Assembly (NCBI GenBank): GCA_963701295.1
Contig: OY969585.1
Span: 480,001-544,000 of the forward strand
Length of the DNA stretch: 64,000 nt
Direction of reading: 5' to 3'
Origin: Ignavibacteriota bacterium
GTDB taxonomy: Bacteria; Bacteroidota; Ignavibacteria; UBA10030
Shown here in pieces: positions 49,142 to 57,166 of this stretch. Numbering within the stretch: the stretch's first letter is position 1; every line of letters begins with the position of its first letter. Under the pieces are notes generated by a model. That model saw nothing but the letters and a program-made list of their open reading frames with translations, made no database searches and was not told the origin of the DNA. The position numbers and the translations under genes were made by a program.

Positions 49142-49214
49142 GCCCCTATCGTCTAGAGGCCTAGGACACGGGCTTTTCAAGCCTGGAACACGAGTTCGAA
49201 TCTCGTTGGGGGCA
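49142..49214 (+). tRNA. tRNA-Glu(TTC)
   Basis: GCCCCTA/TGGGGGC acceptor stem, CGGGC-TTTTCAA-GCCTG anticodon arm, GTTCGAATC. Confidence 0.95.
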
Positions 49215-49243
49215 CAAGGGTTTTAGCATTTTCCTCTCCTAAT

Positions 49244-49266
49244 TGCTAACACTTCTGCTAACACTT
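49244..49266 (+). repeat. Tandem 11-bp direct repeat, putative integrase arm-type sites
   Basis: TGCTAACACTT-C-TGCTAACACTT between tRNA-Glu and the integrase start. Confidence 0.7.
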
Positions 49267-49283: not shown

Positions 49284-50363
49284 ATGGCTTCCTTGATTAA
49301 ACGTTCTAACGGTATCTACTATTTCATTACTCAATTCAATGGTGTGCGTCGTTGGATTAGTACGGGTGAGAAAACTCGTGAGAAAGCTCTCAAGAGAATC
49401 CCTTCCCTCAGCTTCGAACACAGACACAAAAACAAAATTCCCAATCTTTCTGACTACATAGAGCAATTTCTCAGCATCGGATGCAATAGCTATCGAGAAG
49501 GAACGAAAGAAATTTATGAAAGAGCAATGTATTCCTTTCTCGATTGCGTGGGTAATAAAAAGCTCTCTCTCATTAGCATAAAAGATATTGATAAGTACAG
49601 ACAAGCAAAGCTTCAAATTATTCTCCCTACTACTATGAATATTTATCTTCGAACTCTCAAATCCGCATTTAATAAAGCAGTTCAATGGGAGCTCTTGCAG
49701 CATAATCCTTTTTCAAGACTACCACTCTGTCCTGTTCCTCAACGAGCTCCACAGTTCTTCACTCTCGATCATTTTAAAGCATTGACAAAAACGATCAAGG
49801 AACCATGGCTGTTGCAGGCCATCCATCTTGCAGTCTTTACCGGAATGCGAAGATCCGAGATAGTAAATTTGCAATGGAAGCATATTGATTTTTCAAGGGA
49901 GTTAATTATTGTCGAATCGGATGCAAATTTTCAAACAAAGACCGGAAAACGACGGCTTCTTCCGATGAACTCTATAGTATTTCAAATGCTACGGTCTATG
50001 TTTATCACAAGAACAGGAGAATATGTCATTATGTTGAATGGAAAGAAGTTGCGAGACATTTGGCTTTCAAGGAGATTTAAACAATACATCTGCAAAATGA
50101 ATATTGACATTTCCATGCATTTTCACATTCTTCGTCACACTTTCGGCAGTTGGCTAGCACAGGCCGGAGTGCCTATATACGAAATACAAGCACTTATGGG
50201 TCATTCAAACATAAGGGTTACAATGTCGTATAGCCACTTAATACCGAAACAATTGAGAGCGAGCGTTGAGATGCTTGTACCGTTTGATCAATTAATTCAT
50301 AACGGACAACCCTGCGAGGACATTGATCCTCGCAAGACTTCTTCGCAAGCCATCGTTTTCTAG
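49284..50363 (+). CDS. Tyrosine recombinase/integrase 1
   Basis: TGMRRSE, KTG, HILRH, MGHS, catalytic Y (MSYSH). Confidence 0.95.
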   Translation: MASLIKRSNGIYYFITQFNGVRRWISTGEKTREKALKRIPSLSFEHRHKNKIPNLSDYIEQFLSIGCNSYREGTKEIYERAMYSFLDCVGNKKLSLISIKDIDKYRQAKLQIILPTTMNIYLRTLKSAFNKAVQWELLQHNPFSRLPLCPVPQRAPQFFTLDHFKALTKTIKEPWLLQAIHLAVFTGMRRSEIVNLQWKHIDFSRELIIVESDANFQTKTGKRRLLPMNSIVFQMLRSMFITRTGEYVIMLNGKKLRDIWLSRRFKQYICKMNIDISMHFHILRHTFGSWLAQAGVPIYEIQALMGHSNIRVTMSYSHLIPKQLRASVEMLVPFDQLIHNGQPCEDIDPRKTSSQAIVF

Positions 50364-51314
50364 GTGGCAATAGATTTCGGTAGTGCTCAAATTTTTATGG
50401 CCCAGTAGCTTTTGAACTTCATAGATGGGGGTTTGTGCTTGTGTAAGCCAAGAAGCACAGGTATCTCTGAGATTATGAAAATGATAATGTTCTGACAAAC
50501 CACTTTTGTGGACATATTGTTTAAAAACTCTTGTGATATAATGAGGTTTCAGTGCTTTTTCCTCTTTATTGACAAACACATATCCCTCTGTTTTCCTCAG
50601 CGTAAGTAGCATTTTTTTGATAAATGGATGCATCGGTATTGTTCGGGGATGCATACCTTTTACACGAAACGTACCTCTATTACGTATTCGGATCAGAGAA
50701 TTTTGAAAATCTAGATCTTCCCACATTAAATTACAAATTTCACCTCTTCTCATACCTTCATGAACTGCGATTATAATAATATTTCGGAATTGAATATCAT
50801 TTACGCTATCCAATAATGTTTTAAAGTCTGTTTTTGTAAAATATGTTGGCTCCTTATCAGGGACTGGTATTTCCTTGCAGCGCTGGGCGGGATTATCTGA
50901 TACTAATCTCCAGTTCACTCCCAAATTAAATGCTGCCTGAATAGTGCGAAGATAAATATTAACTGTCACAGGCTTCACATCTGCTAAACATTTTTGTTTA
51001 AACTTTTCGATTAACAAGGGCGTCACTCCAATTAACGCTATATCTCCCAGGGCATGGATTAATTTATCAAAGCTCCGTTGATAGATCGATAGAGTACCAG
51101 AAGATAAATTTGTCGATACATATTGACAGACCAATTTTTGAAAGGCACTTAAGGTCATAAGTTTTGGTCTTTCAAGACTACTCGAGATAGTTTCGGCGAT
51201 TCTTTTGGCTTCTTCTTGATCCCGGGAACGTGTAGAACGCCATCTACGATTTCCTTCAAAATCGTAAAATGCAATATAAAAGATCCCATTATTCCGTTTA
51301 AAGAGAGAAGCCAT
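50292..51314 (-). CDS. Tyrosine recombinase/integrase 2
   Basis: GMRRGE, VKG, HNLR, LGHK, catalytic Y (EIYCH). Confidence 0.95.
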   Translation of the reverse strand: MASLFKRNNGIFYIAFYDFEGNRRWRSTRSRDQEEAKRIAETISSSLERPKLMTLSAFQKLVCQYVSTNLSSGTLSIYQRSFDKLIHALGDIALIGVTPLLIEKFKQKCLADVKPVTVNIYLRTIQAAFNLGVNWRLVSDNPAQRCKEIPVPDKEPTYFTKTDFKTLLDSVNDIQFRNIIIIAVHEGMRRGEICNLMWEDLDFQNSLIRIRNRGTFRVKGMHPRTIPMHPFIKKMLLTLRKTEGYVFVNKEEKALKPHYITRVFKQYVHKSGLSEHYHFHNLRDTCASWLTQAQTPIYEVQKLLGHKNLSTTEIYCHLENDGLRRSLARINVLAGLSVMN

Positions 51315-51386
51315 TGCTTTTATCTAACCTTTACAATTACCCAACTTCATAACACTCTATTTTTGAAATTATGTGCATACGCTTAA

Positions 51387-52142
51387 TCATTTCTTTTTAG
51401 GGAAATGTTTATTTAAATATTCCTCATCATTTTCAAACAACGATGCATTAATTTCTGCTCTTCGATTTATTTGATCAAACTCTTCATCAGAGATGCCTAT
51501 CATTTGTGCTATGGAATAATTCAGTCTTTCCGATTCACTTTTAAAAACCCTTGGCGATTTGACCGAACCAGTAGGTGCTTGAATTGATGTAGGATCACTA
51601 CTCCCTATTCCATATTGTTTTTTTAACCTCTGAAATTCGGAATGAAAACCTAATTCCCAAGCTGGTCCCGAAATCATAACGCTTGCTGGTGAAGAAGGTT
51701 TAGGTTTGCGTGTGCTATTATATACCAGCCTATGGCAATCTCTGCATCCCAGCGTTTGCTCGCCCGGAGGCAGATAAAGAATACTCACTGTTTGGTTGCA
51801 AGTATTACCGTTTTCCCTCTCAAAAGGACAAGTTAGATAGAGACGTTCACCTCCACGCGATAATTTAGAAGGATAGGTCAATATTGAATAATCAAATTCA
51901 TCAGTTTTTGGACTGTTTCCAGAATAAGCCGGATACGTTACATCGATATAAAACCTCCCTTGCCAATCCACAGTTGTTCTCCCCCAAATACATATTCTAC
52001 CTACTTCACGATCTGTAGGAGGGTTCGTTATTTGAGTGATTTCACCAATATTTTCAGAAAATAAACCTGAGTCACAGAGTTCTCTAATGTTCAGCGTCCA
52101 GCAATCTTCAACTCTAAATTTTGAATCATATTTTCCAGTCAT
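51387..52142 (-). CDS. Hypothetical protein with C4 zinc-finger motif
   Basis: CPF....C...V.ILYL....GCRDCHRLVYNS; AGGAGG upstream. Confidence 0.75.
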   Translation of the reverse strand: MTGKYDSKFRVEDCWTLNIRELCDSGLFSENIGEITQITNPPTDREVGRICIWGRTTVDWQGRFYIDVTYPAYSGNSPKTDEFDYSILTYPSKLSRGGERLYLTCPFERENGNTCNQTVSILYLPPGEQTLGCRDCHRLVYNSTRKPKPSSPASVMISGPAWELGFHSEFQRLKKQYGIGSSDPTSIQAPTGSVKSPRVFKSESERLNYSIAQMIGISDEEFDQINRRAEINASLFENDEEYLNKHFPKKK

Positions 52143-52194
52143 CTTACCTCCTAAATCTTTCTAAATTTTCAATAGAAATCATTTTTTAACCATT

Positions 52195-52746
52195 TTACTC
52201 TAAGAGCAAATTAGACTCAGAATTGTTCGTTTCCCCTGGTCTGGTTTCAGATATAACCGCTGACTGGGTCGAGTCTGTTTCTTCAGACTGTTTACCAGAT
52301 TCCCTCCATTCACTTTCCACACGTTTTTTCACTTCTTGCAGATCCGTCAAATTTTGCCTGCAAAAATCAATGTGGCAGAGAATGAACTGCTTTGGAGTTA
52401 TACCTACTACTTTTGCGATCGATCCTAAATTGCCAGGCCAGTACATTCTATTTCGTCGATCCTCTGGTCTCTGGGATATAAGCCATTGACTTATAATTGG
52501 GAACAATGTGAAATCACTAGCATCTAATGAATAATCGCGATAATGTAATTTTAGTTTAGATTTCTCCATGTCAATTCGAAATAGATTTTCAAGCGTCGAT
52601 AGTTTCAAGAGTCGAATTTTATGTCTTTTTTTCATCCTTTTTTTGGCCGCTGGTTTAACCGAAATGGCATCTCCTGATTCCTTGAAAATTTCCAATAATT
52701 GCACATTACTCATTTTATTCTCCTCTGTTTTTTCTATTGGTCTCAT
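52195..52746 (-). CDS. Hypothetical protein, possible HTH
   Basis: 183-aa ORF; LGSIAKVVGITPKQF resembles a helix-turn-helix. Confidence 0.6.
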   Translation of the reverse strand: MRPIEKTEENKMSNVQLLEIFKESGDAISVKPAAKKRMKKRHKIRLLKLSTLENLFRIDMEKSKLKLHYRDYSLDASDFTLFPIISQWLISQRPEDRRNRMYWPGNLGSIAKVVGITPKQFILCHIDFCRQNLTDLQEVKKRVESEWRESGKQSEETDSTQSAVISETRPGETNNSESNLLLE

Positions 52747-52966
52747 TAATTTTCGTAATTGACATCATTTATATTCCTCATATGTCCAATATTTAGCCTT
52801 CCAGCAGAAAAAAGCAACTTTTTAAGTACATATAATTACACTTAATTATTTGAGTAATAGCCGTAATTCGCATGCTTTAGCAAATATTTTCCTAAATCTT
52901 CTTAATATTATCTCATATCCCCTTGTCATATTGGACAAAACGACTATTTCGATAAAGCCACATGGT

Positions 52967-53503
52967 TTATTTTACTGAACAAAACTCATGTTTTAATACA
53001 TCGGACTTTCTTTTTGCTAGCCTTAGAGCAAGCTTCATGTATTTATCTGACTCACAATTATTAGGACATATGTATTTAATTTCTCGATCTTGAGTAATTT
53101 CAGCCAAACACTGCATATAAATTTTAATTTCTGGATCGTTCCCTTGACCATTTTTCTTCCACCCACAATTATTTCTCCAGTACTTGCAATTTGCCAGATA
53201 TTCCTTGATATCATGATCGGGACAAATAACGATTATCGGTATGCTATAGTCAGTAATCGAACTCATAGCATGCGAACATGCTTCTAAAAGTGCTTTTTCT
53301 CGAGATCCATTAAATATGTACCCAGAATTATTCAATTCCCTGTCAATTCCTACAATTACTAATCCCCATACCCATATATATTTTCCATTTTGTATGTTTT
53401 TTCTCAAGGCTGAAAGATAAATCATCTTTTTAAAAGGTCGATTTTCCTCGTTATAATTTTTAGTTTCTTTCAATTTTATAATCACTTTAATCCCCCTCCC
53501 CAT
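52967..53503 (-). CDS. RNase HI-fold protein lacking catalytic carboxylates
   Basis: Colinear by eye with E. coli RNase HI, including the W(R/K)..GWK basic protrusion; D10/E48/D70/D134 positions are S/L/P/L. Confidence 0.65.
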   Translation of the reverse strand: MGRGIKVIIKLKETKNYNEENRPFKKMIYLSALRKNIQNGKYIWVWGLVIVGIDRELNNSGYIFNGSREKALLEACSHAMSSITDYSIPIIVICPDHDIKEYLANCKYWRNNCGWKKNGQGNDPEIKIYMQCLAEITQDREIKYICPNNCESDKYMKLALRLAKRKSDVLKHEFCSVK

Positions 53504-53609
53504 TTTATCTAGTACAACACAAGTTTAATTTGATTTTTTTAATTCAGTATATTGTTGTTTGATTTGTCATTATTACTTCAGGTACAACAGTGTATACATG
53601 CAAACATCT

Positions 53610-54038
53610 TCGCACTTCGTGCGATTGCGAACACCTCGCAAATAACGCTCGTGTTCGCAAATTATGTATTTTTCTTCTTTCATTTTATCCTACCTTAGGG
53701 CGGATTTCAGCCAGCCCTTTTTTCTCAAGGGCTATTTTTCTATTAAACTCAAATTGTTACGTCTTATGAAAAGAAGTTATGAGCTTCTCTCTAGTTTTAT
53801 CCTACCTCAGGTATGGATTCTTTACCACATAGATCAAACTCTTTTAAGAAGATTGAATAGGCCGGGGTGCCCGTCTGCCTATGCGGATAACTTTCATATG
53901 TGAATTTATCCATTTTATGTGGTCCCAGTCCCGGTCTATAAACGACCCAGGAAGCACCGCTGGCTACTACTTGGATTTCCTTTTCAGGAAGAGCAATCCG
54001 TTAGAATCTTTTCGACATCGACATTGAGTTATTTTTTT
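53610..54038 (+). ncRNA. Candidate large structured non-coding RNA (or structured ssDNA element)
   Basis: Nested long-range stems and about 10 local hairpins in a relatively GC-richer patch, followed by a T7 tract; strand inferred from G-U pairs. Confidence 0.5.
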
Positions 54039-54301
54039 CATTTAATTGCAATCTTATTTTGTTTAACATTTTCTGTTATTGTTGTCAATTTATAAAAGCT
54101 ATATATAATGTTGATGAACATATTTTGTTCTTCTATACTATATATAGCCTTGAACAAAATTTTAGCAACTGAAATGAGTGTAAAAAGAGACGCCCATATA
54201 GGAACTTCCTATATGGAAAATCGAAGGAAAAATCAGTTTATGAAGAGATGGTTTGGTAGAAAAAACAATTCAGAACAATATAATGAACGACACCTCAATG
54301 A

Positions 54302-54937
54302 TCAGTCAGACAAGATTTCTACTTCTCCCGAAATAAAATCATCCAGCTTTATTTCCCTCTGACCTGAATTCTCAGTGTAAACTAAAGTCGGAACAACAAT
54401 CACTATTTTCATAGGTTTGATACAGAGCTTCCTCCTGAATATTCTATTTTTCGCACCTAATCTTTTATCTTTCCTAAACGCTGTAACTAGGTTCATTAGA
54501 TTCAAGAAATCTCTTATTTTTTTGTCAGATAGTGAATTGTCATTTTCAAGAATATTAATCTGACCATGTCTGAGTAATGCATAACACAGTGCTACTCGCA
54601 ACAATTGGTTCCACATTTCATTAGTGATTTTATCTGATAGACTATATCGCCATTTAGCCTGCTCATTATATTTTTTATCTATTTCAACATGTTCGAAACC
54701 CTCTGATGGCGCATCTCTATTATAAATCCATCGACTACGCATTTTATCAATAAGGGTACTAATATCATCGTATGAGCACTTATGCTTGACAAGCCTGTCA
54801 TTCATTTTTTCCATAATATCACTTGCAAAGATTCCTTTTTTTCTAATTTTCATATTTAGTTTATCTTCAACAAGGATTGCTAATAACTGCAAGGCTCGAT
54901 ATTCCATCTCTAATTCTTCAGTAGCCATTTCACCCAT
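54302..54937 (-). CDS. Putative wHTH + WYL-like regulator
   Basis: N-terminal wHTH-like pattern; LVTAF...IKPMKI...LVY....REIKLDDF resembles a degenerate WYL domain. Confidence 0.5.
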   Translation of the reverse strand: MGEMATEELEMEYRALQLLAILVEDKLNMKIRKKGIFASDIMEKMNDRLVKHKCSYDDISTLIDKMRSRWIYNRDAPSEGFEHVEIDKKYNEQAKWRYSLSDKITNEMWNQLLRVALCYALLRHGQINILENDNSLSDKKIRDFLNLMNLVTAFRKDKRLGAKNRIFRRKLCIKPMKIVIVVPTLVYTENSGQREIKLDDFISGEVEILSD

Positions 54938-55613
54938 AGGTCAATTCCTTCTTTTTCTGAGTTTGTTCATTCTTGTCTGACATCAATGCAGTGATACCAG
55001 ACCCGTGTTCGTTAAACATATAGTATGAATTTGATAATAGTCAAAAATCCTTTTACAGTTACTCGTTATGGACTCGAATGGCATTTCGCACTCTCGATAC
55101 TTCCTTTAAAATCACTAAAACCATTTTGCGAGTTATGCATAAAATATCTTCTCTTTAAACTATCATCTTGAAAGTTAAGAATCAATAACGATTGCATTCA
55201 ATGACAAGTGCCACCACAATTCCCCATGTCAGAGGCCTTCAGTGCCAGATGATTTCCTGTTTCCTCTAACATTTTATCCAAAAAGTTTGGTGATCTATTT
55301 CAATCTGAAAATCACCAAATATTTGCTTAGTAAGGAGTTTATTTTAGATATATTTGTCTCATCACAGGTCCCTCTGCATACACTACAAACAATTGAAATA
55401 ACCCCAAAAATGCTCCTATTACTGCTAAGAAGATTACGAGACCTAGCCATTCCCACATCATAATTGCTAATATCAGCCCTTCAAAAACTGCCATTACAAC
55501 TAACTACACCATTGTTCCAGAAGAAGTGTCAGGTACTGCCCCCCGAATCATGGTCCAATTTGAATGTTAGTTTTTTGTTACATTCACATTATTGGAGCTA
55601 GGAGGAACAGACC

Positions 55614-55877
55614 ATGAAGAAACGATTCACGGAAGCACAGATAGCATTTGCCTTGAGACAGGCGTCATCAGGGATACCCATTGGAGAGATCACCCGAAAG
55701 ATGGGAGTCTCGGATGTGACATTCTATCGATGGAAAAAGCTCTATGCAAATTTAGAAGTATCGGAGATACGGCGCCTGAAGCAGCTGGAGGAAGATAATC
55801 GCCGATTGAAACAACTTGTGGCAGATTTGACACTCGATAAGCAAATGCTGCAGGAAGTATTATCAAAAAAGCTCTAA
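55614..55877 (+). CDS. IS3 transposase OrfA
   Basis: KRFTEAQI, GVSDVTFYRWKK, LKQLEEDN.RLK. Confidence 0.93.
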   Translation: MKKRFTEAQIAFALRQASSGIPIGEITRKMGVSDVTFYRWKKLYANLEVSEIRRLKQLEEDNRRLKQLVADLTLDKQMLQEVLSKKL

Positions 55878-55897
55878 AGCCTGCCCTTCGCCGGGAG

Positions 55898-56716
55898 TTG
55901 ATCCAGGAGGTGCAGGCAATCTATGGAGCAAGTGAACGGCGGGCTTTGAGAGTAATGAAATGGCCACGGTCAACACATCGCCAAAAAAGCGCTCGAGATC
56001 CGCAACTGCCATTACGGTTGCGCTTGCGGGAGTTAGCAGCAACACGCATAGCATACGGATATCGTCGGCTTCATGTGCTTTTAAGACGTGAAGGTTGGCA
56101 GATCAACCACAAAAGAGTGTATAGGCTATATCGTATGGAAGGCCTGTCAATACGTAAGAAAATACCTCGACGAAGAGTGGCTTGTGTAAAGCGGGAGATA
56201 CGCCCGGCGGCATTGACGAGGAATGAGTGTTGGAGTATGGACTTTGTCTCTGATCAACTATTTGACAATAGACGTCTAAGAGTGCTGGTGATCTTAGAGA
56301 ATTACACCAGGCAATGTTTAGCACTTGAAGTAAATGCAAAGATACGAGGTATCGATGTGGCAACGACGTTAGAACAAATCACACGTGAACATGGATTTCC
56401 GAAACAGATCAAGGTGGACAATGGACCGGAATTTATCTCGAAGGATTTAGATCGATGGGCGTACTGGAATCATGTTGAATTGGATTTTAGTCGTCCGGGC
56501 AGACCATCGGACAATGCACTGGTGGAAGCGTTCAACTCTCGTTTTAGACAAGAGTGTTTAAATCAGCATTGGTTCCTGTCGCTGGAAGATGCAAAAGAGA
56601 AACTTTCTGCCTGGCGAAACGAATACAATACCCAGAGGCCGCACAGCTCTTTAGGTTATAGAACACCGTTGGAAGGTAGGATGAAAACAAGCAATGCTGA
56701 AGCCTTTGCAGCATAA
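55898..56716 (+). CDS. IS3 transposase OrfB (DDE; expressed via -1 frameshift)
   Basis: YGYRR, WSMDF, VDNGPEF, VEAFN, YN..RPHSSL. Confidence 0.93.
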   Translation: MIQEVQAIYGASERRALRVMKWPRSTHRQKSARDPQLPLRLRLRELAATRIAYGYRRLHVLLRREGWQINHKRVYRLYRMEGLSIRKKIPRRRVACVKREIRPAALTRNECWSMDFVSDQLFDNRRLRVLVILENYTRQCLALEVNAKIRGIDVATTLEQITREHGFPKQIKVDNGPEFISKDLDRWAYWNHVELDFSRPGRPSDNALVEAFNSRFRQECLNQHWFLSLEDAKEKLSAWRNEYNTQRPHSSLGYRTPLEGRMKTSNAEAFAA

Positions 56717-56774
56717 AATCACAAAAAAACTTACATTGAACTTGGACCTGCGATGGGGGCAAGTACCCAATATA

Positions 56775-56819
56775 CTTTTTACTAAATTTATATTGGATCA
56801 CTTTTTGGGGGGCAGGTCA
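56775..56819 (-). mobile_element. Orphan terminal IR of a second IS407-group element
   Basis: Minus strand reads TGACCTGCCCCCCAAAAAGTGATCCAA from 56819. Confidence 0.7.
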
Positions 56820-57166
56820 GTCGCATACTTGACACTCTTGCCGATTAGATGCTGGAGGTAGGATTCAATATGTTGCTGCTGAATCCTGATAATGGCCGCT
56901 GGTTCGATTGAATCGACCGATATATCCTGACTTTGGAGAAATCCTTTCAGATCACTGATATAGGACTCAATGGAGTTTTCTGCGACCTTCTGCTTTTTCA
57001 AGGATTGAATAAAGGCACTTAACGAAATAAAGTTCGATTCGGATGGTTGACTTTGATTCAACGAGATATCCTCTGGTTCGATTAACTCACCACTAGTCAG
57101 AAAAAATTCTTCTATAAGGCGATTTCCAAGCTCATAGATGCCAATAACAGCACTTTTAAAAATCAA
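56798..57166 (-). pseudogene. Truncated XerD-like integrase (N-terminal SAM-like domain only)
   Basis: FIQSL...AENSIESYISDLKGF...IESYLQHL...KYAT, cut at the IS end; the DLPPKK* tail is IS-derived. Confidence 0.7.

Follow-up and report, generated by a model that had tools for sequence, protein, structure and literature searches.

Beside a tRNA-Glu gene in an Ignavibacteriota bacterium, six genes with nucleic acid-related features are arranged around a non-coding gap, which raises the question of whether they form a system of their own or belong to something larger. They occupy positions 49284..54937 of the window, the term used here for the whole 64,000-nucleotide stretch analyzed (contig OY969585.1 of assembly GCA_963701295.1, positions 480,001 to 544,000). 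An earlier note, made from the sequence alone, had described this segment as a compact 5.6-kb module. The segment is not a stand-alone system; a 52.9-kb genomic island at tRNA-Glu has its left end here. Comparisons were made with 85 other genomes of the same family and 276 other genomes of the same order; individual relatives are labeled G002, G003, G006-G008, G010, G011, G028, G469 and G470, the present genome is G000, and fetched loci carry L numbers.

The tRNA-Glu(TTC) gene was confirmed at 49142..49215 (plus strand), and its 3' 45 bp (49171-49215) constitute attL. The corresponding attR, an exact 45-bp repeat of the tRNA 3' end, lies outside the window at genome positions 582074-582118, 52.9 kb off. 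Beside attL, at 49244..49263 (plus strand), stands an arm-type direct repeat, TGCTAACA-N4-TGCTAACA; four such TGCTAACA repeat pairs occur in the whole genome, namely the one at 49244, one at the attR end (581986), and one at each end of a sister island (2369414 and 2420093). Empty sites, in which tRNA-Glu runs straight into the DNA that here follows attR, were identified in three relatives (G008, 130 nt, 87%; G007, 79 nt, 89%; G006, 70 nt, 90%). Because the 45-bp attR lies 53 kb away, arm repeats are present and relatives carry empty sites, the segment is assigned to an island end. The attL-arm sequence is the same in several of 15 same-genus genomes, and tRNA-Glu is an insertion hot spot.

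Both integrases of the original description proved to be tyrosine recombinases with intact catalytic motifs. Int1 (49284..50363, plus strand) and Int2 (50292..51314, minus strand) match PF00589 with E values of 2e-31 and 2e-34, share 38% identity, retain R, HxxR, H and Y at the catalytic sites, and face each other with 3' ends overlapping by 72 nt. Int1 is likely the island integrase, its ortholog in G002 (80%) also lying at this tRNA, and the TGCTAACA-N4-TGCTAACA arm repeat is likely its binding site. Int2 orthologs (E≤1e-85) were found in three of the 276 order genomes (G002, G469 and G470). The facing Int1/Int2 pair recurs in two of them, G002 (80% and 58%, respectively) and G469, while Int2 of G470 has no facing partner; a remnant of a facing pair persists in G010. 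Our literature search found no account of two convergent tyrosine recombinases at a tRNA in a genomic island.

At the opposite end of the segment, ORF6 (54302..54937, minus strand) bears out the proposed WYL-like regulator by structure prediction. An AlphaFold2 model built from eight sequences, with a predicted local distance difference test score (pLDDT) of 77, suggests a helix-turn-helix (HTH) domain followed by a WYL-like barrel: residues 1-103 fit winged helices, residues 131-211 superpose on CapW (Z 8.0, root-mean-square deviation 2.2 Å, 74 aligned residues), and the top Foldseek rows are PafBC, CapW, BrxR and DriD, with E values of 1.4e-3 to 9e-3 and none under 1e-3. ORF6 appears to share with these WYL regulators a predicted winged helix, a WYL Sm/SH3-like barrel, a palindromic candidate operator and a location on a mobile island. 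In contrast to those class A proteins, it has no WCX domain, stopping at 211 aa directly after the barrel. This matches the class B architecture, defined as HTH-WYL without WCX; in the available part of Muller et al. 2019 (PMC6789036), the WCX-less class accounts for 15% of WYL proteins, and a need is shown for the WYL tyrosine and for two arginines of the ligand loop. Unlike WYL regulators, ORF6 scores under every Pfam WYL model, and in an alignment read by eye, poor at its C-terminal end, ORF6 and its close homologs appear to keep neither the W-Y-L triplet nor the second loop arginine. Because these residues appear to be missing, the proposed induction through a ligand-sensing WYL domain is uncertain. 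The family is sparse, with three homologs (ORF6 included) among 134 candidates, four among 1.84 billion representatives, and occurrences in 2 of the 276 order genomes.

A palindrome, ATAGGAANTTCCTAT, at 54195..54215, approximately 90 nt past the ORF6 stop codon, is the likely ORF6 operator, as judged from the distribution of similar sites. The palindrome 54199-54211 is the sole exact copy in the genome and its top matrix match, and each of the two ORF6 homologs of G007 is followed by a counterpart after approximately 100 nt. Around one of these homologs, six sites with ≤2 mismatches lie within 20.6 kb, compared with 0.84 expected and 0 of 100 shuffles; at ≤1 mismatch, four of the six G007 sites fall on the contig of the ORF6 homolog, ≤11 kb from the gene. 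A promoter of the form nTGnnn-17 bp-nAnnnT is positioned exactly 19 bp past the site at six of nine G007 sites (background 0.005), and the same pattern at 31 other offsets occurs at none of the nine. Class I activators such as CAP bind near -61, a position that the G007 sites, centered near -61, would fit. The placement differs from that of described regulators: in the available portions of the respective accounts, the DriD site overlaps the -35 position (PMC13004042) and BrxR acts as a repressor from a site downstream of the promoter (PMC9122601), whereas 19 bp separate the G007 ORF6-family sites from the -35 box downstream of them. Genes behind these sites encode SbcD/SbcC-like, HNH-like, peptidase, AAA/cREC_REC and unknown proteins, with Fic and AbiE genes nearby.

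Several observations accompany this candidate operator. The loci L007, L006 and L172 of G007 contain a predicted ORF6-family regulon of at least six promoters, in each of which 19 bp lie between the operator and the -35 box. The exact operator 15-mer was found in 4 of 86 family genomes and its reversed control in one; in G011 and G470 the copies stand with no ORF6 homolog near them and were dismissed as background. A 17-mer of the operator found in 81 viral stretches was likewise attributed to chance, none carrying ORF3-6 homologs (80 fetched, mean G+C content 0.32). The interval 54193-54217 was also called a terminator, a role that may be compatible with that of an operator.

Between the integrases and the gap, ORF5 (52967..53503, minus strand; likely start GTG 53485) corresponds to the dead RNase H of the original description, and that identification holds as a sequence-based prediction. 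ORF5 was placed with RNase_H clusters (Atlas 0.93) and aligned by hhalign with ten RNase HI proteins of the order (90%, E 1.6e-6), being alignable over 135 columns. In contrast to RNase HI (PF00075), its catalytic positions are replaced (D10->S, E48->L, H124->N and D134->L, with D70 ambiguous, P or D; residue numbers are those we take to apply in E. coli RNase HI). It is therefore predicted to be a dead RNase HI with at least three of four catalytic acids lost, in which the W..NG basic-protrusion motif is partly retained. Weak matches occur in 23 of the 276 order genomes, 16 of the 17 translated being ordinary RNase HI genes, and the host has its own RNase H gene elsewhere in the genome. Among 63 candidates, the one close homolog was ORF5 itself; no PDB sequence matched, tblastn in phages and plasmids gave only E≥0.2, and a single-sequence AlphaFold2 model reached pLDDT 37. 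Our literature search found no account of a catalytically inactive bacterial RNase H-like protein with a non-coding RNA and a tyrosine recombinase.

The question of whether these parts belong together, for which the earlier note had proposed a co-occurrence check, is addressed mainly by G469, a genome of another genus in the same family. Its locus reads Int1 facing Int2, two small ORFs, a pseudo-RNase H upstream of Int2, a 615-aa ORF, a 308-aa ORF and an ORF6 homolog, the last in divergent orientation 6.7 kb away; behind it stand the AAA and cREC_REC-like genes that G007 also has. The RNase H homolog scores 38 bits with Pfam and shows D10->K, D70->E, D134->T and no H124. It is translationally coupled to the 615-aa ORF (L224:12915-14759), which has weak single-subunit RNA polymerase matches (PF00940, E 1.6e-4, below cut-off; PHROG 2051, E 7e-4); by eye, Pol A-like motifs were also noted in the 615-aa protein. 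No homolog of ORF3, ORF4 or the gap was found in G469. Because a second genus combines the facing integrases, a pseudo-RNase H and an ORF6 homolog, the protein trio appears partly real, although its parts also occur apart: the facing pair of G002, likewise at tRNA-Glu, has different genes upstream and no ORF3-6, and the two ORF6 loci of G007 showed no integrase, RNase H or ORF3 match in the fetched DNA. Homologs of ORF3 and ORF6 (72-73%) each lie on a 114,382-bp JGI contig, taken as one contig.

The interpretation that we favor, and consider slightly better than an even call, is that the left end is a core in which Int1 moves the island and ORF6 binds the palindrome at 54195-54215 and switches on the leftward genes. 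Int1, acting with its arm sites, would integrate and excise the island. ORF6 would be a dimeric activator working from a site near -61, as it appears to do at six G007 promoters, and the leftward operon under its control would comprise the pseudo-RNase H, ORF4, ORF3 and, last, Int2. ORF5 would serve the element's transcription or replication as an accessory that binds RNA:DNA hybrids and leaves them uncut. What fits best is a modular core shared by tRNA-targeted islands of this family, with the pseudo-RNase H as a recurring accessory. The present copy is probably a reduced, rearranged derivative with disturbed operator spacing, because the polymerase-like partner of the G469 pseudo-RNase H is absent here.

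A number of points weigh against this interpretation. Excision, ORF6 binding and leftward transcription are all predicted. The matrix margin of the window palindrome is small (18.2 vs 17.0), the window operator has the +19 promoter geometry at no offset from 8 to 39, and the geometry itself comes from one genome, G007, with sites found by the window's own pattern; no site of this kind follows the gene of the G469 ORF6 homolog (25% identical). ORF5 and the G469 pseudo-RNase H may be independent recruits, because they show no mutual match at E≤0.05 and have lost different residues. Int2 adjoins another, AAA-ATPase-type ORF in G002 and G470, and no ORF5 homolog surfaced with the ORF3 and ORF6 homologs of the 114-kb contig.

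The same observations lend some weight to a chance mosaic, in which the island end has gathered unrelated pieces, namely a satellite gene, what is left of an integron cassette together with a decayed RNase H, and a WYL gene; we regard this as unlikely, without being negligible. Every part is found without the others, ORF4 and ORF5 are orphans, an attC remnant lies directly before ORF5 while an insertion sequence of the IS3 family and an integrase fragment follow ORF6, and the operator geometry is lost here. A mosaic accounts less well for six frames that are all open and full length, for the recurrence of the integrase pair, pseudo-RNase H and ORF6 family in G469 (one of three other Int2 genomes) when the ORF6 family occurs in only 2 of 276 order genomes, and for the presence of ORF3 and ORF6 homologs on the 114,382-bp contig.

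A more elaborate proposal, which we consider distinctly improbable, is an unnamed dual-integrase family that has recruited a dead RNase HI as an RNA:DNA-hybrid clamp, with a WCX-less WYL activator at -61 that turns on an operon and an R-loop formed by the long folded leader of that operon or, as in G469, by a polymerase-made primer. The pseudo-RNase H would shield the R-loop from host RNase H and hand it to Int2 or to an element polymerase. If true, tyrosine-recombinase islands would gain a layer of control that depends on RNA; present evidence does not support the RNA part.

Fainter still is the probability of the ribonucleoprotein system originally suggested, in which the pseudo-RNase H binds a structured RNA from the gap and thereby steers recombination or defense. 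Beyond folding, no positive evidence for it was obtained. The gap (53504-54301) does fold better than its shuffles, with z of -4.7 and -5.7 for 53500-54110, and ranks second among 102 scored gaps (the genome has 123 of ≥600 nt). It contains a predicted orphan four-way junction (53824..53923), which would lie in the long leader of the leftward operon and whose surroundings (53815-53950) give z -4.0 on the plus strand and -2.8 on the minus strand. The basic protrusion that binds hybrids is partly preserved in ORF5, and local hairpins stand between genes in G469 (z -3.5 and -4.2 in 120-nt windows). The claim of a large structured RNA is not confirmed; the folding signal is patchy and has no homolog. 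In 120-nt windows it peaks at 53541-53720, which is the attC remnant, and at 54081-54200, which is palindromic promoter-like DNA. Rfam searches of the gap, at gathering thresholds and at E≤10, gave nothing meaningful; BLAST found no relative in the 85 family genomes except the attC fragment, nothing similar in G469 or G470, and only 30-50-nt chance matches in plasmids and phages. DNA run X1 returned only short identical pieces on sparse contigs, none spanning the gap. A single-sequence covariance model of the junction found no homolog in the 85 family genomes or 43 fetched loci. With no gap homolog found, there were no pairs to count in the covariation check proposed earlier. The 800-bp gap is more likely operator, promoter and leader DNA with an attC remnant than a trans-acting guide RNA.

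The attC remnant is a truncated integron attC-like site at 53583..53670 (plus strand), consisting of a left box and inner hairpins with no matching right box. Three of the 85 family genomes (G003, G007 and G028) have attC-like hairpins of 158-163 nt whose inner arm shows 83-90% identity to its 53611-53659 portion (48-49 nt); one of these hairpins lies directly behind an IntI-like integrase (231 bits, against a cut-off of 265). The left box and this similarity are what the site shares with integron attC sites; unlike them, it has no complementary right box and lacks the full R''/R', L''/L' pairing of the bottom-strand hairpin. It is present in a single copy in the genome, with the outer stem absent. 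Branched attC-like sites of approximately 160 nt form a family in this bacterial family (L016, L017 and L018), and the window copy has no Rfam match.

Further features of the gap were recorded. Two copies of a 17-nt repeat with dyad symmetry (at 53683 and 53795, within 53683..53830) flank a terminator-like hairpin at 53713-53733; only these two copies occur in the genome at ≤2 mismatches, and five viral contigs that matched the repeat showed no further likeness. A 36-aa cysteine-rich ORF, P0013 (53573-53683, minus strand), spans the attC remnant and heads for ORF5, and the first 17-nt repeat provides it with a purine-rich stretch resembling a ribosome site; the ORF may be a leader peptide or a product of chance. 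A sigma-70-like promoter match (11/12) lies on the plus strand at 54082..54151 within an inverted repeat with 26-bp arms. A CRISPR-like array was rejected, there being two repeats only, as was a system of retron, diversity-generating retroelement or other reverse transcriptase-RNA type, with no reverse transcriptase among the module or scanned island ORFs.

The least probable explanation, a WYL-regulated anti-phage cassette in which ORF6 represses or activates a defense operon as BrxR or CapW would and ORF5 either senses RNA:DNA hybrids of phages or acts as their decoy, draws on the fold match of ORF6 to BrxR and CapW, on the TIR, NACHT/WD40 and AbiEi/AbiEii genes of the island, and on the co-localization of BrxR homologs with defense islands stated in the available part of PMC9122601, and is countered by the lack of any PADLOC match for ORF3-6 or effector domain in the operon, by the resemblance of the G007 regulon to repair and recombination genes, and by a site position there that fits an activator.

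Among the described elements considered here, pipolins are the closest analogue of the core favored here, in which Int1 moves the island and ORF6 would activate the leftward genes. According to the available part of their account (PMC11551731), pipolins are tRNA-integrated and carry two tyrosine recombinases, a WYL gene, orphan core genes and exchangeable defense cargo. These features are shared, as is a polymerase-like gene in the G469 element. Unlike pipolins, the present island has no piPolB, the primer-independent PolB, and its integrases face each other, and the G469 gene weakly resembles single-subunit RNA polymerase or Pol A; a pseudo-RNase H is not mentioned in that part of the pipolin account.

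More generally, attL/attR repeats, arm repeats, an integrase beside a tRNA, and cargo characterize tRNA-targeted islands, cis-mobilizable elements and satellites resembling phage-inducible chromosomal islands (PICIs). The present island shares the 45-bp attL/attR, the arm repeats, Int1 beside the tRNA, and cargo of metal and arsenic genes, and with PICI-like satellites it shares the ORF3 family, which sits in elements with an integrase, DnaB and Phage_rep_O. The island gene scan (Pfam, E≤1e-5) covered 46 island ORFs chosen among the longer ones, with small and divergent ORFs outside it. In contrast to such islands and satellites, no relaxase, type IV secretion system, DnaB or Rep was found among these 46; an integrative and conjugative or mobilizable element would be recognized by relaxase, oriT or type IV secretion genes. 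No capsid, reverse transcriptase or polymerase family (piPolB included) was found among them either, in agreement with the earlier note on conjugation, capsid and reverse transcriptase genes. Its cargo includes arsenic, metal, AbiEi/AbiEii, TIR, NACHT/WD40 and cREC_REC genes. A defense-like cluster at L001:6060-17806 encodes a 1441-aa WD40 protein, a 539-aa membrane protein, a TIR protein and an RyR-domain protein.

The two remaining genes of the segment are less distinctive, and ORF3-6 gave no match at a useful E value in Pfam, PHROG, NCBIfam or PADLOC. ORF3 (51387..52142, minus strand) belongs to an unnamed Cys4 family, predicted to be a Zn-ribbon, of satellite-like integrative elements. Of the zinc finger claimed for it, the cysteine pattern stands, CP-x9-C and CxxC being invariant in four of four aligned homologs, and zinc binding is predicted from that pattern. 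The family occurs in 12 of the 276 order genomes and also in the present genome, on a second island; a tRNA is present at 10 of the 12 loci fetched from other genomes, and none of the 12 showed an ORF4, ORF5, RNase H or ORF6 match (E≤0.01). ORF3-family genes adjoin the att site in many satellite-like elements, and a 7.8-kb example at tRNA-Arg (L011:8184-15920) encodes an integrase, DnaB, Phage_rep_O and an ORF3-family protein. ORF4 (52195..52746, minus strand) is an orphan with no homolog in the 85 family genomes and is possibly an HTH protein, as had been proposed; its similarity to a putative HTH cluster (Atlas 0.89) is a lead only. A 10-bp inverted repeat pair upstream of it (52782-52791 and 52929-52938, approximately 140 bp apart) is a candidate ORF4 site. 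Viral scans with ORF3, ORF4, ORF5 and ORF6 were empty, and metagenome scans with ORF3 and ORF6 yielded no locus.

Outside the six genes, an IS3-family element (55532..56815, plus strand) with 30-nt terminal inverted repeats interrupts the DNA upstream of ORF6, and its end severs an integrase N-terminal SAM-like fragment at 56798-57166 (minus strand). Just inside attR, tblastn located a tyrosine recombinase C-terminal fragment (G000:C1 581744-581880), which by eye we take to resemble the ends of integron integrases. The 51-kb sister island at tRNA-Phe (G000:C1 2369336-2420232) has the same arm repeats and an Int1 homolog that IS3 has interrupted; many genes for secreted proteins lie there on one strand, in the manner of a cassette array.

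The locus offers, for a WYL protein that lacks WCX, a candidate operator with a candidate promoter geometry, at a position unlike that of DriD or BrxR. That two genera have a pseudo-RNase HI gene upstream of their second integrase further hints that mobile elements may use RNase H in a non-catalytic manner.

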